Shown here: positions 18,047 to 63,903 of the stretch, piece after piece
Numbering within the stretch: position 1 is the stretch's first letter
Layout: every line of letters starts with the position of its first letter
Origin: Phoronis australis
Taxonomy: Eukaryota; Animalia; Phoronida
Length of the DNA: 64,000 bases
Direction of reading: 5' to 3'
Assembly (NCBI GenBank): GCA_002633005.1
Contig: NMRA01000421.1
Location: 337,573-401,572 of the forward strand
Notes under the pieces: model-generated
The model's input: only the letters and a program-made list of their open reading frames with translations
What the model was told of the DNA's origin: nothing
Database searches by the model: none
Position numbers and translations under genes: made by a program

Positions 18047-19825
18047 ACTGATTGTAACGCAAATGTTTATGTTGATCGGTTTGGTGCTGGCGTGCATTTG
18101 TATCAGTATTCTGTTGCGAGCCCCGGCAAAGCCGTTGGCGATGCACAAATGCCGGCCTTTACCTTGTTACCTTGATACTGACAATTTCACATTTTTCGTG
18201 GTTTTAAATTAAGTTTTGATCATTTCGAATACTTGAAAAGGATACTAAACCCTATTTTGATGATCTTCACCAATCCTCGTCACCTGCTAATGCATCATTG
18301 TCGTCAACCTTCCAGTTAAAGTCAGGAATCAACAGAAACTCATTCTCCCTATGTCACAGATTGGACATTATGTGGTCCTTAGTGGGTGGTCTTTTGTCGT
18401 GTAATTCGCTTAAAACGGTGGTTACGCTTGCAGACTTTGGCAGGAGTTTGCTGCAAATTTTCCTCTAAACTTTTGAGAATTAAAGAGCATTATTTTGTTT
18501 CAGAAAACTGTATGGGAAAGTTTTTAGTATACGGTATGTTAATAGATCAAACAGCGCCTGCTACTTTATAGTCACCCAAGTATGGAATCGGACATATTTA
18601 TGTGCCTACTCTATATGACGATGACGTTGTTTTAGTGTAATGACTATCTCCGCATGTCAGTGCATTAATGCGATAGCCTAGCTACTAATTGTCGCCGGTC
18701 ACTAGAACAAACATGACGGGGTGTTGAAATCGATTTTTGATTGAAACGATGATTTCTATTGCTCCGACATTCTCTGTTCTTCTGAGGTCTGACGCCAAAG
18801 TATCGATGATTGTTCATCTACAGACGTGGATGGTCATAGATGCCCTAATCTAGTTACATTTTCAACACTAGTACATATGCGTATGAGGCGCGATGCAAAG
18901 GAAACATCGATTAGCTGTTGGTTTTGCACCCCACAACCTGCGGTGTATGTTAAGACTTTTCCTCGCACCCTCTGGATTTCCAAAAGCAGAAGCGTCAGGG
19001 AAGACAATTCTGATGTCGAATTCGATCCATACCTGAACTTTTTTAACAAATGCAAAAACAAAAACAAAGATCGGAGATTTCTATAAAAAAGCGCCATTTG
19101 CCCTTTTCATGAATTGCACTCGGAGCTCAAACACTTAGAGATCCGCACTACGAGACGAGAGCTCAGAAGGTGACAGTTTTGTGGAAATAGCCTAGTTTAT
19201 AACTCAGTATCACAGTTTTTGACTTGCAGAGTTGGGAGTGGTTCCATGATATCGCGCTTTGCATACCCACCTTAAAAATGTCGAAGGTAGGGACACCAAA
19301 ATTTCCATTTTACTAGCATAAAATCTACCTATGAATAAAATTTGGAATAGACACTTCCAATGTTGAGTCTAAAAATGCAAATCGATTAACGTTTGTTAAT
19401 TTGTACAGTTGGATTGCCAAAAATCTAAAATAATTCCTCATTTTGTCAACAGAACAAAAAATATTTACGTGTTTAAAACATAAAAAGTAACCGAAATCTG
19501 TGTTTCTAACCTAAAGATCAGTTCACTGTAGCTGGGTTTACGCGTGTCAAACAAAATTAACACGACTTCAGCTGCTTGACGGATCAGGAAAGCAGTCCGC
19601 GCTCAATTATATTCACCTGAAGAAAAAGAAGCTGTCTGGGCTCGCTGGATAATGAGTTTATCCAAGCGGGTATCTAATGTAAATGACAAAATTCATGTCA
19701 TGTATAAGGCTCCATACTACAATAGTAATAGCAATCAGTTGTCTCAAATGAAACATGGAAGGAGAGTTTGCATGCCAAAGATTCTCGTTAACAAAAATTT
19801 CGTTGATAAGAAACAGAGTCTTTAC

Positions 19826-48000: not shown

Positions 48001-48189
48001 AATGTATTTGTTCATATACACTGTAGGTGCTAGTTTCAATCATATTCCATGATTATCGCCAACTTTCACCGGTTTACTTCCTTATGTAATTTTAACGCAA
48101 GTTTGACAAGTGCTAACTGCTGTGGTGGCAAATGCACTGATTTCATGAAATAAACGAAACAATTGTAAACAAAGGTATCAAATCTAAGA

Positions 48190-49172
48190 AAACTGTTTGT
48201 AATGAGATACAGCGTCAAGTTGCTGTTTGTTAAAAAAACATTTCTCATAGCGTCTTAAGGGACCTTCATTCCTAAATACAATTATTTTGGTTTTCTTTAA
48301 ATTCACAGCCATACCCCATGAATCACAATAATCATTGAGACAATTCAACATGTGTTGCAAGTTTGACGCTGTTAGAGAGAACAAAACCATGTCATCTGCA
48401 TATAATAGTGAATTAATATTTGTAGCATGTTCATCTAAAGAGATGCTATTTATATCACAACGTGAATTGAGTTTTTCTAAAAACTCATTGAGATACAAAA
48501 CAAACTGTAGAGGGCTTATCATACAGCCTTGTCGAGTACCAATAGTGCAATTAAATAAGTCTGTTAAACCATCACGTGTTTTAACACATGATCTCAACTT
48601 GCTATACATTGATCGCAGAATTGATAAGATATTACCATGAACATTAATTTGCATAAGTCTATGAAAAAGTGAAATATGTGGTATCCAATCAAAAGCTTTT
48701 GAAAAGTCAATAAATACACAATAGAACTTGACACCCTTTTTTCTTATGTGTTTCTGACATATCGCATATGAAAAAAATATGATCCACAGTCGCGTAACCT
48801 TTGCGGAACCCTGCTTGGTCTTCAATAAGTTGACCATTACGTTTAGCCCAGTTGTACAATCGGTTATTCAGTATTCTGGTAAAGAGCTTCCCAATAGCCG
48901 AAAAAAGCGAAATACCTCTATAATTATTCTCATCGTCAAAGTTTCCTTGTTTAAACAACGGAACTAACATCGCCAAGCCTGGGGAGAGGACCTGACTGGA
49001 AAATTACATTGAACAACTTATGCAGAATCGGCGAAATGAATGTTTTGGTACATTTTAACATTTCGAAAGTAACTCCATCAATACCAGCGGCCTTGCCATA
49101 TGGGAGCTGATCAATATCCTGGATAATTTCATAACACGAAATGTCTGCATTTAAATCATGTTGTATAATGTG
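48190..49172 (-). mobile_element. Degraded LINE ORF2 reverse-transcriptase portion
   Basis: GKAAGIDG..EMLK, PLFKQG..DDENNYRGISL, QAGFRKGY, FIDFSKAFD, GTRQGCMISP, LLYADD; frameshifted. Confidence 0.9.
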
Positions 49173-54349: not shown

Positions 54350-54980
54350 GGTAAAAGCCATCACGGATATGCCGTACCCAGAAACTATAAAGCAGGTACA
54401 AACTCTCCTTGGAATGGTCACATATGTTTGTAAATATCTGAAAAACCTGTCTTCAGTCATCGAGCCATTGAGGAGTCTGATTAAAGAGTCAAATGAACCG
54501 CAGTTTCAGTTTCACTTTGATGAAGTGCACAAAACCGCATGTGACAAATTGCGTAAGATGCTGATAACAGCACCTGTGTTAAAATTCTACGAGTATGATA
54601 AACCAGTTACTATTTCCTGTGATGCTAGCCAGTCAGGGTTAGGCTATGTCTTGATGCAAGAGGGCTCTCCAGTCGCATATGGATCTAAAGCGTTGACTGA
54701 TGCAGAATATGCATATGCCCAGATAGAAAAGGAGCTATTGGCGATAGTGTGCGCGGTCAGAAAATTTCACACTTACATATATGGCAAGTTGGACGTAACC
54801 ATTGAAACTGATCATGCTGCCTTGCAACAAATTCTACAGAAACCATTATACCAAGTCTCGTTGCGGATGCAAAAAATGCGAATGCGATTACAAGGGTATG
54901 ACTTTAAACTTCAGGTCAAGAGGGGAACAGAAATTCCCGTGGCAGATGCCTTGAGTCGAGCTTACTTACTTGACACTGAT
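54350..54980 (+). pseudogene. Ty3/Gypsy pol fragment (RT connection and RNase H)
   Basis: LLGMVTY...PLRSL...APVLKFY...ISCDASQSGLG...PVAYGSKALT..E..YAQIEKELLAIV...FHTYIYG...ETDH...ADALSR; no RT core, integrase or paired LTRs. Confidence 0.9.
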
Positions 54981-55216
54981 CGCTCCACCGATTCCCGTTA
55001 CACTTATAACAACTTTTTAATCAGTAGGAGGCATACTTTGCAGAAAAGCTTCCGGGGTATGAACCGCCTATAGGAGTTACATCGTCTCTACTGAGCCAGC
55101 TAAAGATGGTGGTCACTGTCCACCTACTGAGTTATAACTTTTACTTGGTAATAATTAATAAAAAGGGTTATAACCTCTACTGACGCTACACCACTCTCAC
55201 TCTTAAGCTGTGCTAC

Positions 55217-56023: not shown

Positions 56024-56565
56024 ACCAGGTGGGGCAGCTATTGGATGTTGGATGTCAACTAACTAGCTACCGGACTCTCCCTCTGGATAGCTTTAATGTT
56101 TGACCACCAGGTGGGGCAGCTATTGGATGTTGGATGTCAACCAACTACTCAGCCTCTCGTTCAGTAACGCTAGGACCTCGCTAAAAAGCAAGACTTCGCG
56201 AGATTACGTGTGATGTTGCCGTGCGTTTTAAATGAGAGCACGTGTCTTTGACTAGGTTTTAGCTAGGTCCTAGCGTAGGTCCTAGCGTCTACTGAACGCA
56301 CGCGAGCTATCTGTCTCTTTGGATAGCTTTAATAGTTGTCTACCAGGTGGGGCAGCTATTGGATGTTGGATGTCAACCAACTAACCAGCTGTCTGTCTCT
56401 TTGGATAGCTTTAATAGTTGTCCACCAGGTGGTGCAGCTAATGGATGTTAGATGTCAACCAACTAACCAGCTATCCCTTTGGATACCTTTAATGTTTGAC
56501 CACCAGGCGGGGCAGCCAACTAACCAACTATTTCTAGGAATAATTTTACAATTTGACCACAAGGT
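56024..56565. repeat. ~81-bp minisatellite interrupted by a MITE
   Basis: Unit ccaggtggggcagctattggatgttggatgtcaaccaacta...ggatagctttaat...; MITE at 56152-56303. Confidence 0.85.
56152..56303. mobile_element. MITE, inverted copy of the 21735 family
   Basis: Reverse complement of 21735-21884. Confidence 0.8.
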
Positions 56566-56599
56566 GTCGACAGTAGTAATGTGTACACCTAACTAGTTG

Positions 56600-57218
56600 G
56601 TTGGAGCCTCCATGTCTCAGTAATGATGTGTTTATCAATGGAGCCTCCGTGTCTCAGTAATGGTGTGTTTATCAATGGATCCTCCATGTCTCATTAAGAG
56701 TGTGCTTATCCATGGAGCCTCCATGTCTCAGTAATTATGTGTTTATCAATGGATAATCCATGTCTCAGTAATGTTGTGCTTATCCATGGAGCCTCCATGT
56801 CTCAGTAATGATGTTCTTATCAATGGATCCTCCATATCTCAGTAATGGTGTGTTTCATAGCGTAGAATTGCCGTGAGGACTTGACTGGGACCTCAGGGGT
56901 CTCACACTCCACTGATTTATCCACATTATTTTGAAAACGCTTTGCCCAGTCACACATTAGGTGTCATAAAACAGATAAGAATACCTGCAGCTGACGCAGC
57001 AAGTAGAACTATACTCTCGTTATCACATTGGTGTAGACTCACAGTTGAACTGTGGTTTTCTGTTGACCCCAGATCGTCTGGAGTTGCACCATATACCAAC
57101 TCTGGACGGTTTCTCACTACGATTTAGCATTATGTATCCATGGAGTCTCCATGTCTCAGTAATGATGTGTTTATCATATCAAAGGAGTCTCCATGTTTCA
57201 GTAATGGTGTGCTTATCA
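56600..57218. repeat. 37-bp minisatellite (about 7 + 2 units, with a ~280-bp interruption)
   Basis: Unit atggagcctccatgtctcagtaatgatgtgtttatca at 56600-56857 and again at 57139-57218. Confidence 0.9.
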
Positions 57219-58405
57219 AACGAGAACATTAATCATTTGCAAAGAAGATTATGCAGAACTGAGAATTATAAAGCTGTGTGAATATTCTCATCAGGTTGAA
57301 TCCTATAAGGCCTTTTTATACTAACATCGATGCGTCCATGTTTTGGGGAGTTGCGGTCAGTATGAATGGTTAACTTTGGTCCAAGGTGGAAGTTAACAGC
57401 GCCAGTTAACTTAGCTGTAAATAAGTGGATTTAACAGTGGAGCGTCGATGCTTTGGTGCAGTATGAATGGTCAACTTCGGTCGCCAGGTGCCACTGTTAT
57501 CATCATCAATTTTATTCCTCCCAGAATTCCCCCGAGTACTACCATGAGATACGGACATGCGCAAAGCGGACCATTCCACGGACTTATCTTCTAGAGGAAG
57601 ACGTGTTTTTCCTTTGGAAGGTTTTTTCGCGCAAGTTACACCGCGACCACGCTCAATTGCATAACTCTTTGCTAATGAGCATTTTCTTCTTATCAACTAT
57701 ATCATCATCTTGGAAGTTTTGGCCGACCGAGCTCACCGACTCTGTGTGACTCGACGGGCCACACAATGCCCGGTTTTACCGGCGCTGAGCATTACGACTC
57801 TCTATTGGCCTTATCGTATTTTCAGGCCTACCTGCTTTGGGGCTTCCGTGACTCGACACGGACCATGTGGAGTGGTTGATAGTTGTTCTATCCTCGTACG
57901 CTTAACTCTTTGCGTATTTAACACTCACATTTGGGCTTTTGGCACAGCGCACATGAGGCTCGCATGACTCATCAGTCAAGTATTTCTTTGTGTGCCTCAC
58001 TGTACTGACACGTTACGTCATACCCACGCACAGCTGTACATTGTTTACCACTTTGTACACGCCTTTGACCTTTGCACCGAATGTGCCCTCTTTGTGCTCG
58101 GCACTGTCGACGCCAGCGATCCTGACACTCTTTTGTTCGTCGGTTGCCATCGCTTCCCGGTTACACCCGGGTTTTTCGAGTTGCACTCGCTGCCCGCTCT
58201 AATCCCTGGGAACGCATCTTAGTCATTCACACATTATGCAGCGCGGGTTTTTACAGCCAATCCCGGCGCACTTGTGAGGTCACGTGCGGAGGTGGTTCGT
58301 TCCCACCAATCAGTTTCCACCCTCGGGTATTTAGGCATTTGCTGTTGCAGGCTCGGACATATCGCAGTTTTCGCCTGTTCGTAGCGCATCAGACAGCACT
58401 TCATC

Positions 58406-61400
58406 ATGCCGAAGGACTCCGCCGATAGGAAATCTGGATCAACTTCGATCGAGAAGCCCCCGAAGAAGACATCTTCAAGTTCAGTTACACTGCCGTCCAT
58501 CGATTCCCTGACGCGGGCTTCGTCGCCTGACCGTCAGCCGCCGCCGAGTGAACCGTCCACCACCGCCGCTTCAGCCACCGCCGCCCAGACTCCGGAACCC
58601 ACTACGGACCGGAGTTTATTCAATCCCCCGACGCTGATGCCGTCTTGGCCGCCCTTCTACGCGCCACCACCCCCACACATGGGCGGTTACCATTACTGGC
58701 CGCAACCTGTTCCCATGGAGGACTATGCGCACTTCGCTCCCTCCTCCGATTCTGAAGACGAGACAGCTTCCACCTCGCCACTTTCTGGAGCGCCTCTCCC
58801 CCACAGTGCTGAGCCGCCATTTGTCGGGTTGCTGGCGTCTCATTTGGCGGATCAGTCCGAGGAGCAAGCGCCGCCAGTATCGGACGCTGTTGCGTCCCTC
58901 GTCAACTCCCTATGGGAGCGGGGTAAGGCTTTCGATATAAAGCAGGCACACGATAACCACCCCCGGCCCGATAACATTACAGTCCACAAGACGGACTTGA
59001 ATGAAGAAATTGCTGACGTGGTGCAAAACCACAAAACTGTGAAATTTAAAGAGGGCCAGTTGAAATCTGCGCAGTCGGCAATAGCCAGGGCGGCCATTCC
59101 CCTGACTAAATTGGTGGACACCCTGATCACCACAGCTCCCAAACATCTAAACGCCAAGGACTTGGTGGACAACACTGTAGACGCGCTAGGTCTCCTGGGC
59201 TATGCTAGCGCGAAGATCAACTCCACTAGACGAGACATTATAAAGCCCCATCTCAACTCAAAGTACCATTCGGCACTCAACAAGGCCAGTGCCTCAGACA
59301 AGCTCCTGTTTGGAGACCAGTTGGGAGAGAAGTGCAAACAGGCCTCTCAGGCCCTTAATCTCGCCCGGACTCCCATGACTGCGAGACACTCTACACGCCG
59401 GCCGTCGCCCTACCCTGCCTCCTACAGACGGGCCTATCAGCGCCAGCCGCAACACGGCTATCGCCCTTTTTTAGGTGAGCATTCATTTGTACTGTCGAAT
59501 GCACCAAATTTTATGCGGGCGGCAGCTCGTAGTGGACATGTTTGTCAATCTGCTACTAATACTCTTGCATTGTCTCTTGACAGGCCAACAGTACACTCAA
59601 AAACGGCACCCACCACGGAAGCCAGCCACAGCCACCAGACAGACTGCCAACCGAAAATAGACTTATCTTCCGTAAGTAAAATATCCTTGGTCCTCTCTGA
59701 CCTTGAGACCTCCTTGGCCAGAGGGGTTAGTTACTGTGTCCCTAAGTGGCGTCAAATTACTAAGGATCCTCGCATACTGGCCATTGTCACCGGCTATGAA
59801 ATTGAATTTGACCTGCTTCCTACTCAAACACAACCAGGTACCAATGCAAAATTTTCGCCACTTGAACAACAGTTCCTGCGTAGGGAAATTCAATCCATGC
59901 TGGCTAAACAAGTCATTGAACGCTGTCCTCACTCTCCTGGACAATTTGTGTCTCCCGTTTTTCTTCGACCTAAGAAAGTTGCAAATGAGTTTCGGTTTAT
60001 CCTTAATTTGAAGACCTTAAACTCTTATGTTGCTTATCATCATTTCAAAATGGATACCTTTGAATCGGCACTTCGCTTAGTGACGCGGGATTGTTACTTT
60101 ATCAGTTTAGATTTGTCTGACGCTTATTATAGCATCCCAATAGCCAGGCATCATCGAAAGTACTTGCGATTCAGGCATGATGATGCGCTTTACCAATTTA
60201 CGGCTTTGCCAAATGGTTTAAGTTCAGGACCGCGTATCTTCACTAAGTTGCTTAAGGTGCCCCTGGCGGAACTTCGCCGCGTTCATGATGTCACTATAAC
60301 GGCCTACATAGATGACACCTTAATTGTGAATTCTGACCCTGACAAGTGTGAAAATGATGGGGTACTGACAGCCACATTACTACAAGATCTTGGTTTCACA
60401 GTCAGCAAAACTAAGAGCGTTTTGACACCTTCTCAGGAAATAGACTTTTTAGGGTTCCATATTGACTCGAGAACAATGACCGTCACTTTACCGCCCTCCA
60501 AAGCAGAGAAGCTTATATCTCTGCTTAATGATTTTTTATGTATGGATTGTATCTCTATACGGGATGTTGCAAAGTTAGTGGGTACATTACTGGCAACTCA
60601 CCCTGGCAATCGCTATGCGCAACTGTTTACAAAGCAGCTGGAAATCGACAAGAATGTTGCTCTGCAGCAATCCGGTCGTAACTTCGAGAGTGTCATGTCC
60701 CTTAGTCAACTTGCTTATCAAGATCTATCTTGGTGGACCACTAATGTTGCTCACTGCTTTGCTCCAGTGTACCTCGGTGACCCTGACTGTGTGTTCTACA
60801 CCGATGCTAGTTTACAGGGATGGGGTTGCAATATTCCTTCTCGGAATAAAACGTTTGGTGGGCGTTGGGATTACACTGAAGTTACTTGGCATATTAATGA
60901 GCTTGAACTCACTGCAGTTTATTATTCCTTACAATCTGTATTTGCAAACATGAGAAATATTCATTTACGGGTCATGACTGACAACACAACAACAATGCAG
61001 TGTATACGTCATCAGGGCTCTGTACACTCATATCGCTGTAACAAGGTTACCCGAAAAATCTGGCTCTGGTTAGTCGAGAGAAACATTTGGTTGTCAGCTG
61101 GCTTTTGCCCTGGTAAACAAAATGTCGCTGCAGACACAGCATCCAGGGTTTTCAAAGATGAAACCGAGTGGACATTACTTCCACATGTTTTTCGAAAAAT
61201 TTGCACAAAATTTGGGAACCCGTCCATTGATTTGTTCGCATCAAGACTTAATTATAAGGTGAAACCCTTTTGCTCTTGGCAACCAGACCCAGAAGCTGCA
61301 TTGGTGGATAGCTTTATGTGTCATTGGGGGAATTACAAATTGATTTATGCTTTTCCACCCTTCGCGATTTTGAATGCAGTCATTCAAAAATGGATTATGG

Positions 61401-61738
61401 ACGAGGCTGATGGTATTATCATTGTGCCCTTCTGGCCAACAAAGCCCTGGTTTACTATGATGACTCCCATGATCATAGGGACACCGTTTATCATTCCAGC
61501 TACTAATCATACTTTGGTTTTGCCTTCTAGACCTCAGGCCCGGCCCATGGACAAACTCTACCTGATGGTGACGCACTTGTCAGGCAGGCTCTACAGACAA
61601 AAGGATACAGCCCATCTGTCATCACCACCATCATGGCGTCCCGACGAAAGTCCTCTTCAGACCTCTACAGCTGCTACATCAAACAGTGGATTCTCTATTG
61701 TAGTCAGAGGGACATTGCTCCAGTGTTTGCACCTGTAG
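58406..61738 (+). CDS. DIRS Gag + RT + RNase H + Dam-like methyltransferase, one continuous frame on unspliced RNA (1110 aa)
   Basis: Gag-like region (RRDIIKPHL, LLFGD, PFLG); RT (FRFILNLK, LDLSDAYY, LPNGLSSGPRIFTK, YIDD); RNase H (TDAS, HINELE, TDN, NVAADTASR); MT (IDLFAS...YAFPPF). Confidence 0.92.
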   Translation: MPKDSADRKSGSTSIEKPPKKTSSSSVTLPSIDSLTRASSPDRQPPPSEPSTTAASATAAQTPEPTTDRSLFNPPTLMPSWPPFYAPPPPHMGGYHYWPQPVPMEDYAHFAPSSDSEDETASTSPLSGAPLPHSAEPPFVGLLASHLADQSEEQAPPVSDAVASLVNSLWERGKAFDIKQAHDNHPRPDNITVHKTDLNEEIADVVQNHKTVKFKEGQLKSAQSAIARAAIPLTKLVDTLITTAPKHLNAKDLVDNTVDALGLLGYASAKINSTRRDIIKPHLNSKYHSALNKASASDKLLFGDQLGEKCKQASQALNLARTPMTARHSTRRPSPYPASYRRAYQRQPQHGYRPFLGEHSFVLSNAPNFMRAAARSGHVCQSATNTLALSLDRPTVHSKTAPTTEASHSHQTDCQPKIDLSSVSKISLVLSDLETSLARGVSYCVPKWRQITKDPRILAIVTGYEIEFDLLPTQTQPGTNAKFSPLEQQFLRREIQSMLAKQVIERCPHSPGQFVSPVFLRPKKVANEFRFILNLKTLNSYVAYHHFKMDTFESALRLVTRDCYFISLDLSDAYYSIPIARHHRKYLRFRHDDALYQFTALPNGLSSGPRIFTKLLKVPLAELRRVHDVTITAYIDDTLIVNSDPDKCENDGVLTATLLQDLGFTVSKTKSVLTPSQEIDFLGFHIDSRTMTVTLPPSKAEKLISLLNDFLCMDCISIRDVAKLVGTLLATHPGNRYAQLFTKQLEIDKNVALQQSGRNFESVMSLSQLAYQDLSWWTTNVAHCFAPVYLGDPDCVFYTDASLQGWGCNIPSRNKTFGGRWDYTEVTWHINELELTAVYYSLQSVFANMRNIHLRVMTDNTTTMQCIRHQGSVHSYRCNKVTRKIWLWLVERNIWLSAGFCPGKQNVAADTASRVFKDETEWTLLPHVFRKICTKFGNPSIDLFASRLNYKVKPFCSWQPDPEAALVDSFMCHWGNYKLIYAFPPFAILNAVIQKWIMDEADGIIIVPFWPTKPWFTMMTPMIIGTPFIIPATNHTLVLPSRPQARPMDKLYLMVTHLSGRLYRQKDTAHLSSPPSWRPDESPLQTSTAATSNSGFSIVVRGTLLQCLHL
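59475..59583 (+). other. Candidate spliceosomal intron 1 of DIRS (109 nt) at the gag/pol junction
   Basis: TAG|GTGAGC donor, GCTACTAAT branch (59552-59560), pyrimidine-rich tract, GACAG| acceptor; removal gives a 381-aa Gag ending ...PFLGQQYTQKRHPPRKPATATRQTANRK*. Confidence 0.65.
59672..61530 (+). other. Candidate spliceosomal intron 2 of DIRS (1859 nt) removing pol
   Basis: TCC|GTAAGT donor (phase 0 in pol frame), GCTACTAAT branch (61499-61507), tttggttttgccttctag| acceptor; the YR frame opens at the first base after the acceptor. Confidence 0.65.
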
Positions 61739-62544
61739 GAGAGGGACTTTCTTTTCTCCAAACACTTGTCAACCATAATAAGGGCTACAGTGTCCTTAAT
61801 ACTGCCCGCTCTGCACTTTCTTCTGTTATGATTTTACCAGGCAATGAGACCTTTGGTTCTAATCCAGATGTAGTTCGTTTTATGAAGGGTGTTGCAAATA
61901 TGAACCCCCCTAGACCTCGTTATGTTGATACCTGGGACGTGAATGTAGTGTTAGATTTCCTAAAATCATGGGGTCCGGCTAAGTTGTTACCAATAGCGAA
62001 ATTAACTATGAAGACTGTTATGCTTATACTAATTCTCACCGGACAACGTCCGCAGATCATCTCTGCCCTTAACGTAGATTCCATGAACATTTCAGCCTCT
62101 AAATTTACCTTTACCATTGCAAGCAAGGATCTTAAACAAGGCCGTCTTAATTATAAACCTGAACTGTTACACCTGAAAGCTTTTCCGTCAGATAAGCGGT
62201 TGTGCATTTATCATTATTTGACTGTATACTTAAAACGTACTCTAGACTATCGGGGGTCATGTAAAGCACTATTTCTTACTGTTACTAGACCGTATAAAGC
62301 AGCCACAGGTGATACTGTACGGCGATGGATCCGAAACGTCTTATCGGAGGCTGGTATAAATGTCAATGTATATAAACCCGGTAGTGTTAGATCAGCTTCT
62401 GTTAGCAAAGCTAGTGTGTCTGGAGCCACTGTTGAGGAGATTATGAAGGCAGGTGGTTGGTCACGGCCTTCGACATTTAGCAAATATTACAAGAAACCTA
62501 TCAACAGAGAATCTAAAACCTTGGCAGAATTTGTATTGCATTAA
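61531..62544 (+). CDS. DIRS tyrosine recombinase (frame open from 61531; first ATG at 61633)
   Basis: N-terminal Y..LNTARSALS region; catalytic-type motifs TGQR, GSVR (H-x-x-R variant), GGW, KYY; overlaps the 3' end of pol in another frame. Confidence 0.93.
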   Translation, partial: TSGPAHGQTLPDGDALVRQALQTKGYSPSVITTIMASRRKSSSDLYSCYIKQWILYCSQRDIAPVFAPVGEGLSFLQTLVNHNKGYSVLNTARSALSSVMILPGNETFGSNPDVVRFMKGVANMNPPRPRYVDTWDVNVVLDFLKSWGPAKLLPIAKLTMKTVMLILILTGQRPQIISALNVDSMNISASKFTFTIASKDLKQGRLNYKPELLHLKAFPSDKRLCIYHYLTVYLKRTLDYRGSCKALFLTVTRPYKAATGDTVRRWIRNVLSEAGINVNVYKPGSVRSASVSKASVSGATVEEIMKAGGWSRPSTFSKYYKKPINRESKTLAEFVLH

Positions 62545-62625
62545 TTGTATATGTTGACCTACCAATACAAATTACTCGAACATTTGGTGTTGTTTGCTGT
62601 CCACTTTCTGTGATCAACTTTCAAG

Positions 62626-62748
62626 TCTCATGGTAGTACTCGGGGGAATTCTGGGAGGAATAAAATTATACAGTTAGACGAACTTACCTTAAGTGAAGGA
62701 TGACTGTAATTTTATGTATCCCCAGAATTCCCCCAGAGTGCTAACATG
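62626..62748. repeat. DIRS internal complementary region (ICR)
   Basis: 62626-62667 is the exact reverse complement of 57508-57549; 62664-62748 is the exact reverse complement of 62831-62915. Confidence 0.95.
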
Positions 62749-63763
62749 CCCTCCACATCCCACCCTGTTAGCACTCTCTTGATCACAGAAGAGCTTTAAA
62801 GAATGGTCCGCTTTGCGCATGTCCGTATCTCATGTTAGCACTCTGGGGGAATTCTGGGGATACATAAAATTACAGTCATCCTTCACTTAAGGTAAGTTCG
62901 TCTAACTGTATAATTAAAGGGCAGTGTCGTCGCTAATAGTTGCTTATTTTTTGCTTGAATAATCACCAATTATCGAATTAAAAATAAGTTTTATGTCAAT
63001 TAGCACATGTAAATGTTCCCAAATCACATTAAGAAAATCTTAGCGTGCAGCGCCACCTTGTGATTAATTCGATGACAACAACGTCACCATTTATTTCGAT
63101 GTTCGTTAACTACCGAAGCTGGTATGAATGGTTTAGTTAACTTCATAGATTACGTCGATGCTTCACTCAGACCAGGGTTAAGTCAGTATGAAAGGGCCCA
63201 TAGACATTCTGGTTCTTGGTAAGTTGTTTTTGTATTACAGTGATGTGTAATTATTGTTACTACAGATGCTCACAAGAGGGAAATTACAAAATCTGGGTTT
63301 GTATTCCCTGAATTTATCATACATAATCCAGCATGAACGAAACGGCCCTATGCCTCATTTGGCTCAGACTATCACCCATGTATGCATTGCACCATAAATT
63401 AAGTAGCTCTCTGTTGAAATTGCAGTCATCACGTGTCATTTCAAGCGACGGGCATGGTCCCAAGAGCACAACGGAACTTTCAGTTCTTCCATAGTCCGGA
63501 TATCCTTACTTATCTTTGTAAGGAAAAACTATACAACGGTAAGAGGTCTAACTCCATTTTGACGGCCAATGGGTTTATTACCGCCTTAACCTATATTTGT
63601 CCATGTTCGCATAAACGGAAATAATTAGGTATTAAAATTAAGGAAACAATGTAAACATCCACAAGTGATTCTCATGTCGCCGCATGCACGTAATCCGGAT
63701 ATGACGTAATGCGCGAGTGTAGACCTGCGCCGCACGCTTTCACGTTTTTGCATTTAGTATTTC

Positions 63764-63903
63764 CACAGGCGCTTGGGTTTATCTGTTCCTCGATCGCAAA
63801 TGACGTCACTCAATAATACATATAAGAAAACATATGTGTTCTTATATGTATTATTGAGTGACGTCACTTGCGATCGAGGAACAGATAAACCCAAGCGCCT
63901 GTG
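63764..63903. repeat. Near-perfect palindrome (65-bp arms, 10-nt loop)
   Basis: cacaggcgcttggg...tataagaa / ttcttata...cccaagcgcctgtg with one mismatch; each arm contains TGACGTCA. Confidence 0.92.

Follow-up and report, generated by a model that had tools for sequence, protein, structure and literature searches.

An intact DIRS1-like element with two introns

The 64,000-nucleotide (nt) stretch of Phoronis australis DNA analyzed here (contig NMRA01000421.1 of assembly GCA_002633005.1, positions 337,573 to 401,572; "the window") carries at 57509-62915 an intact and complete DIRS1-like retrotransposon whose features all lie on the forward strand. Its coding region holds two introns, both of which are removed in RNA, and removal of the second, which takes out most of pol, probably creates a fusion of Gag to the tyrosine recombinase (YR) of the element.

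In genomic DNA the element shows two open reading frames (ORFs): one of 1110 codons from the ATG at 58406, and a YR frame of 337 codons from 61531, which overlaps the end of pol (61738) and is −1 relative to it. The long frame begins with the body of a Gag-like ORF1 (58406..59474, 356 codons), which is the coding part of exon 1. Near its end lies the heptamer T TTT TTA in the Gag frame (59467..59473), a predicted −1 frameshift site one base before the first donor. Intron 1 (59475..59583; 109 nt, GTGAGC...ACAG) has a length of the form 3n+1, is free of stops in the Gag-Pol frame and is partly retained in RNA. Exon 2 (59584..59671, 88 nt) holds two frames, one for a basic Gag tail that ends in the TAG at 59658-59660 and one for a linker to Pol or YR. 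Intron 2 (59672..61530; 1859 nt, GTAAGT...CTAG) contains the reverse transcriptase (RT), RNase H and most of a methyltransferase-like domain, and exon 3 (61531..62544) is the YR frame, 337 amino acids (aa) that open at the acceptor and have their first ATG at 61633.

The termini are those of a complete element. The left terminus and left inverted repeat occupy 57508..57576, with an ATT start at 57509, and the right inverted repeat and its extension occupy 62801..62915, with ATT at 62913 and the element end at 62915; the ends are thus of the NTT type. A repeat search of the window paired 57529-57576 with 62801-62848 (48 nt, 94% complementary) and 57508-57549 with 62626-62667 (100% complementary). 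The internal complementary region (62626..62748) consists of a left part (62626-62667) and a right part (62664-62748), both 100% paired with the ends, which overlap in the AATT at 62664-62667, the circular junction. The split direct repeats that are a hallmark of Ngaro and PAT elements were not found in the element; its ends are inverted instead, and a Dam-like match is present, a methyltransferase being absent from Ngaro elements. A second copy is absent from the rest of the window, and a search of Rfam gave no match.

The Gag-like ORF1 matched no Pfam family, and BLASTP (E<=1) found it in 38 of 41 RT-bearing relatives of at least 780 aa, the weakest match being 1e-5. In pol, RVT_1 scored above its cut-off (E 5.5e-22); RT_RNaseH (E 0.004) and Dam (E 0.008) followed in the expected order, both below their cut-offs, and relatives bear PF05869. 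The YR frame matched Phage_integrase (E 1.6e-6), its structure model (pLDDT 89.5) had Cre as top structural match (E 1.5e-8), and residues R173, R287, W310 and Y320 are conserved. At 62380-62391 a Gly replaces the His of the HxxR motif, as it does in several of the closest homologs.

In the passages that describe them, DIRS1-like elements (Piednoel et al. 2011, PMC3266345), including DIRS-1 of Dictyostelium (PMC7192593), share with this element a gag, a pol with RT, RNase H and a methyltransferase-like domain, an overlapping YR, inverted terminal repeats, two internal complementary regions at a circular junction and ATT ends. The same passages give these elements three ORFs and make no mention of introns or splicing, whereas in the present element a retained intron unites gag and pol in a single genomic ORF, and two spliceosomal introns are used. 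DIRS-1 is described as making its cDNA in a manner that depends on the internal complementary region and as integrating by YR without target duplication (PMC7192593).

Both introns are removed in RNA

The original prediction, drawn from the DNA letters alone, had proposed both introns, and on recomputation all of its coordinates, phases and lengths were correct. The identical branch motifs are present as it described: GCTACTAAT stands at 59552-59560 and at 61499-61507, each copy ending 23 nt before the acceptor G, and 0.03 copies would be expected in the element by composition; one further copy lies outside it, at 18681. Equally borne out were the phase-0 position of donor 2 and the opening of the YR frame at 61531 behind the acceptor's own TAG, 34 codons before the ATG at 61633. 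Unspliced RNA would encode a Gag-Pol of 1110 aa. Removal of intron 1, or of both introns, gives a Gag of 381 aa with its stop 11 nt before junction 2, and removal of intron 2 alone gives a Gag-linker-YR frame of 759 aa; both lengths, as predicted, were reproduced. By arithmetic, the predicted −1 slip after removal of intron 1 would yield a Gag-Pol of 1074 aa or a Gag-YR of 723 aa. Two other candidates were discarded: a splice from donor 1 to acceptor 2, which would give a 367-aa dead end and is not among the joints listed at 98% likeness, and a slip on the A-run just upstream of the Gag stop, a run that is broken in a diverged copy read by hand.

We aligned a contig run, X1, which is possibly DNA, and three stranded RNA runs, X2, X3 and X4, from one other study, about 18-19% of each of the latter being read. 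In X2, X3 and X4, respectively, 6396, 5178 and 6320 reads aligned, of which 2259, 1846 and 1532 were at least 99% alike. The two junctions that had been proposed for an RNA check were both found in all three runs and on one strand. At a likeness of 90, junction 59474^59584 was covered by 9, 10 and 41 reads and junction 59671^61531 by 53, 36 and 66, all of them GT-AG and all in the first-mate-minus class, with zero in the opposite class; at a likeness of 98 the counts were 6, 9 and 38 for the first and 51, 33 and 65 for the second. Contig 2 of X1 also bears both joints. Donor 2 of the window scores only 0.2 bits in our splice-site scoring, a simple matrix of animal frequencies, though the reads show its use.

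Sense depth was 14.3, 16.3 and 7.9 in intron 1 and 36.5, 36.4 and 57.6 in the exon 2 bin (59584-59692), and it rose about 5-fold at 61531. When window-like sense reads alone are counted, intron 1 has a depth of 10, 10.8 and 5.5, and intron 2 one of 6.2, 5.4 and 1.5. Relative to the junction counts, these depths correspond to a retained share of 0.53, 0.52 and 0.12 for intron 1 compared with 0.10, 0.13 and 0.02 for intron 2. The higher retained share of intron 1 implies that some RNA keeps intron 1 and lacks intron 2.

Such joints could also be read as coming from intron-less or decayed genomic copies, with the intact element itself not using the splices. X1 may be DNA, and a diverged, rearranged copy with many indels contributes much of the YR-exon depth, using the same acceptor: loose ends at 61531 from this copy (84, 69 and 134 reads) end in exon-2 sequence. 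However, both joints are still seen when 98% likeness is required, any copy lacking the introns would have to derive from RNA spliced at precisely these ends, and elements with an RT identity of about 40-50% conserve the sites. We therefore regard this explanation as extremely improbable.

The reads also revealed other copies and joints. The diverged copy is highly expressed (58394-59617 plus 61531-62578) and still joins exon 2 to acceptor 2, although it has lost an internal segment, contains an inversion and bears many indels in YR. Upstream of the Gag stop its exon 2 has two changes which, read by hand, leave the Gag residues as they are and alter those encoded by the linker frame. A near-identical copy with its own single-nucleotide variants, probably a polymorphic insertion, is transcribed antisense across pol (58930-62199) in X2 and X3, not in X4. 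Loose ends of mixed foreign sequence stop at acceptor 2 (61529-61531), as if host exons were spliced into the YR exon. Six X4 reads connect a site near 60341 with acceptor 2; there, a variant at 60342 may have given rise to a GC donor that is out of the YR frame. At the flanks (57500-57503 and 62912-62970), reads and contigs join both flanks to each other, or the right flank to other upstream sequence, which suggests empty alleles or a repeated target. The ends of 8 X2 molecules at 57583 are a weak hint of an RNA start.

Predicted sites for the pol-skipping splice match the recombinase frame in most related families

To compare the sites among relatives, we used an RT alignment built from the window and 9 long Gag-Pol proteins, with scan patterns within RT only. 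We took the best 80 of 289 metagenome loci, together with a single genome locus and the window, and these formed 56 clusters at 80% nucleotide identity; the long-protein query may favour relatives with a continuous ORF. The donor-2 set held the 46 clusters with both the gag end and the RT start, 10 with incomplete ends being dropped. The acceptor-2 set held 46 clusters with the pol end and YR, after 2 were dropped for a frame mismatch and 8 lacked a domain. The RT scan gave no locus in viral contigs, the YR-only scan of metagenome contigs gave none, and the search for relatives by Gag found nothing.

At acceptor 2, the best AG in a 310-nt window stood in YR phase 0 for 38 of the 46 families, compared with 47 of 138 control windows in RT. 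From the best acceptor the YR frame was open in 37, and in 27 of these 37 it was closed within 30 nt upstream. The acceptor lies at the protein motif FPPF-S in all 25 families where the Ser codon supplies the AG and elsewhere in all 18 where it does not (the motif is absent in 3); in the window's own clade it sits at the site homologous to 61530. Because the acceptor is in YR phase 0 and moves where the AG is lost, the pol-skipping splice looks general to these families.

The donor is phased as well. The best donor in the 135 nt before RT was in phase 0, 1 and 2 in 30, 15 and 1 of the 46 clusters, and a phase-0 donor of at least 5 bits was present in 22 of 46, as against 0 of 322 control windows. 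Among the 15 phase-1 donors, 12 are tandem sites with a phase-0 GTAGGT 4 nt upstream, and GTAGGT was preceded by G in 14 of 14. The loci L001-L008, L010, L012, L031, L053 and L070 have such paired donors, GTAG and then GTRAGT at a spacing of 4 nt; the first fits the YR frame, the second has the higher score and does not, and the pair may possibly act as a further throttle on YR output.

The expectation that the sites would be conserved in relatives held for the phases of acceptor and donor and for the openness of intron 1 described below. It did not hold for the branch motif: relatives retain one of the CT(A/G)A(C/T) type, not GCTACTAAT, and the 9-mer identity is peculiar to this copy. Apparent Gag-YR proteins (P0046, P0021, P0081 and P0094) look like gene-model joins and were not taken as evidence, and a longer YR protein in one Mytilus gene model joins YR to RNase H, not to Gag. 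A separate clade (L063, L037, L073, L027 and L024) has gag and pol in one frame and a donor at the gag end, with neither intron 1 nor a slippery site.

Intron 1 lies on a predicted frameshift site

Donor 1 stands directly behind T TTT TTA G. This heptamer is of the X XXY YYZ type, in the zero frame and followed by an open −1 frame. Among intron-1 clade families that have the region, the same heptamer is present in 10 of 11 and a run of six T in 11 of 11; about 0.09 per element would be expected from Gag codon use. Where intron 1 adjoins the slip site, it is in 10 of 10 clusters (the window included) 106-196 nt long, of 3n+1 length and without in-frame stops, with 4-14 stops in another frame. 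Three further cases, picked by eye, are likewise 3n+1 and stop-free, making 13 of 13 carriers; two of these three, L009 and L014, have no slippery site. Single ORFs of at least 1000 aa were present in 33 of 120 RT matches.

Removal of intron 1 from the window's RNA leaves three ORFs, as in 25 of 46 related clusters that have no intron 1 and carry pol in the −1 frame. Sixteen of these 25 have T TTT TT(A/C) in the Gag frame; the remaining 9 mostly have another heptamer or a near match, and one has nothing. In 26 of 26 slippery-site elements no stop interrupts the −1 frame between the heptamer and donor 2. In its basic Gag tail and its open −1 frame to donor 2, the window's RNA without intron 1 is of the same type as these relatives, in which the heptamer appears to be the only evident route to Pol and YR. 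Since the intron-1-less relatives with pol in the −1 frame match the intron-1-spliced RNA, a fusion has two likely routes: a 759-aa form from RNA that retains intron 1, and a 723-aa form from a −1 slip after both introns are removed.

In a midpoint-rooted FastTree phylogeny the intron-1 elements fall together, with support 0.88, in one group that contains two untyped loci as well. From this pattern the −1 slip is probably the older route, and intron 1 appears to have landed on the slippery site in one clade; because the tree has neither a clade test nor an outgroup, this order of events is a reading and not a result.

It could be that splicing alone sets all three products, with retention of intron 1 as the sole route to Gag-Pol and Gag-YR and the heptamer as a relic. 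This would fit the intron being open in frame in every carrier, its presence without a slippery site in L009 and L014, the lack of folding downstream of the heptamer once this copy's RNA is spliced, and the fact that about half of the sense RNA keeps intron 1 in X2 and X3. However, in X4 only about 12% of sense RNA keeps it, and the silent positions of the heptamer are kept in nearly every family of the intron-1 clade, far above the expectation from codon use. We consider a purely splicing-based control unlikely. The original claim that splicing sets the ratios of Gag, Pol and YR thus stands in part: both introns are spliced and phase-matched, with intron 1 the more retained, and the heptamer adds a predicted slip. 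Likewise, removal of intron 1 does give the 381-aa frame of Gag alone, and doubly spliced RNA may in addition make Gag-YR through the slip.

A literature search that paired DIRS with slippery found nothing. In the unspliced RNA of this copy, the region behind the heptamer and over donor 1 (59474-59533) can fold at −18.5 kcal/mol (z −2.2); the other nine intron-1 families have no such fold in unspliced RNA (mean z about 0). A ribosome that slipped by −1 on RNA still unspliced would run into a stop that donor 1 itself forms.

The start of the recombinase and the position of the Gag stop

The YR frame is conserved upstream of its first Met (Met35): R18 in 14 of 19 homologs, G25 in 15 of 21 and S27 in 18 of 21. 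Helices 13-23 and 28-36, nearly all upstream of Met35, fall in the confident part of the model. Since pol stops within 14 codons of its last motif in 18 of 46 families, part of this N-terminal conservation is not attributable to pol.

These data bear on the suggestion that the spliced RNA merely places YR near the end of Gag, and that free YR is made by reinitiation or leaky scanning at the ATG at 61633. On doubly spliced RNA that ATG lies, by arithmetic, just 113 nt past the Gag stop, and 15 of 25 homologs carry Met as residue 34 or 35. A start there would, however, cost the protein one helix that is conserved and modelled with confidence, along with most of another; in 12 of 37 families no Met occurs from the acceptor up to this point; and the phase match of acceptor and donor would be left unexplained. 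A free recombinase made in this way seems to us decidedly improbable.

A Pol-YR fusion by frameshifting in the pol/YR overlap, with the splice as a side product, was also considered. For Ngaro elements a pol-to-YR frameshift has been proposed (Poulter and Butler 2015, as quoted in PMC13003380), and according to that quotation Ngaro shares with this element a YR frame that overlaps the end of pol at −1, as it does in the window and most relatives, and that has no evident start of its own. Yet a slippery heptamer within the open overlap occurs in only 4 of 46 families and not in the window, 87-98% of window-like sense RNA is spliced at intron 2, and the YR frame opens at the acceptor. The element differs from the proposal for Ngaro in that splicing takes pol out and the slip is predicted for the end of gag. 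We judge a Pol-YR fusion to be very unlikely.

The Gag stop lies close to donor 2, at 8-47 nt before it in 26 of 26 slippery-site elements. This distance is independent of that from slip to donor (rho −0.005), with which the length of the tail scales (rho 0.78). In L053, L014 and L009 it is 35, 56 and 68 nt. Stops within 50-55 nt of an exon junction escape junction-dependent decay, a rule known from mammals from which this host may differ.

Other sequence in the window

Upstream of the element lie fragments of other retroelements with RNase H and RT domains (54351-55070 on the forward strand and 48187-48867 on the reverse strand) and a 37-nt tandem array (56565-56897). At 63764-63903 there is a 140-nt near-perfect palindrome with loop-free 70-nt arms (97%).

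Discussion

The reading we favour is that the element has two optional introns and that removal of intron 2 produces a Gag-linker-YR fusion, by retention of intron 1 or by the predicted −1 slip. Phase-0 acceptors in 38 of 46 families, together with an intron 1 that is 3n+1 and stop-free in 13 of 13 carriers, make such a fusion likely. Intron 2 would act as a choice of enzyme: when it is kept the product would be Pol, and when it is removed YR would be joined in phase to the linker frame of exon 2. A second switch would set Gag alone against Gag plus an enzyme. With intron 1 out, most ribosomes would stop after the basic tail and release the 381-aa Gag, and the smaller number slipping at U UUU UUA would enter the linker frame and make the shorter Gag-Pol or Gag-YR; with intron 1 kept, the frame would be continuous and the longer forms would arise with no slip. 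We infer that fusion to Gag would bring both enzymes to a Gag-RNA complex, where they may be packaged, and that solely the unspliced RNA would be copied back. Because the ORF1 of DIRS elements is reported, in the passage available, to have no clear homology to retroviral Gag (PMC4495291), a "particle" is an assumption here. DIRS elements are described in one source passage as having no protease (PMC3783388), and the fusion would therefore stay uncut unless a host protease acts on it.

Several observations weigh against this reading. The molecule with intron 1 kept and intron 2 removed was not seen in any read or contig, and the sole contig that spans both sites has both introns out. Per run, intron 1 exceeds intron 2 in depth by no more than about 4-5 reads (Fisher p 0.002, 0.0005 and 0.06, from reads that are non-independent); these come from several genomic copies and could reflect splicing intermediates. 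Behind the heptamer there is no stable fold in this copy's spliced RNA (−6.9 kcal/mol, z −0.5; pseudoknots are outside the model), and the mean z is −0.8 in 10 intron-1 families and −1.25 in 16 others, values below −2 being found in 2 of 10 and 6 of 16, respectively. In 12 of 46 families a stronger donor lies 4 nt downstream of the phase-0 donor, out of the YR frame, and in 8 of 46 the best acceptor is not in phase 0. Acceptor scores are inflated at FPPF, whose codons are pyrimidine-rich anyway, and the frequent Met at YR position 34 or 35 would suit a start within the frame. The families are, moreover, related to one another, so that the counts are non-independent.

A broader proposal is that DIRS1-like elements generally make YR as a Gag fusion by a pol-skipping splice behind a gag-end frameshift, and that this clade is shifting from frameshift to splicing control, with an intron on the slippery site, in-frame retention as a second route to both enzymes, and the sister lineages L009 and L014 then losing the site. 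In our judgement the chances of this are evenly balanced.

HIV-1 makes Gag-Pol by a −1 frameshift at U UUU UUA, and retroviruses express env from RNA from which gag-pol has been spliced out. The element would share with them the same heptamer, a downstream gene that is reached by splicing, and the use of unspliced RNA as template. Unlike in retroviruses, gag stays in the spliced RNA here, and the downstream gene is the integration enzyme, in a predicted fusion with Gag.

The source passages on Ty1/Copia elements (EVD of Arabidopsis, PMC5580714; BARE, PMC3735527) describe a comparable arrangement, with a single Gag-Pol ORF in unspliced RNA and an optional intron that leads to an excess of Gag. 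In those elements splicing goes together with early termination and Gag is its only product, whereas here a second, large intron swaps the enzymes. We found no report of the present splices in the searchable literature, whose reach does not include the main DIRS reviews, which may mention splicing.

For the translation of the overlapping YR frame in DIRS-type elements, the one published proposal available to us, made for Ngaro, is a frameshift out of pol; junctions located exactly and backed by reads, together with a splice plan found across dozens of families, offer an alternative answer. It suggests a route by which the integration enzyme could reach the element's own cDNA. It also presents a retroelement that retains introns over long evolutionary distances, one of them sitting on a frameshift site. 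If this reading is true, the annotation of DIRS elements would change from three ORFs to one gene with several products.

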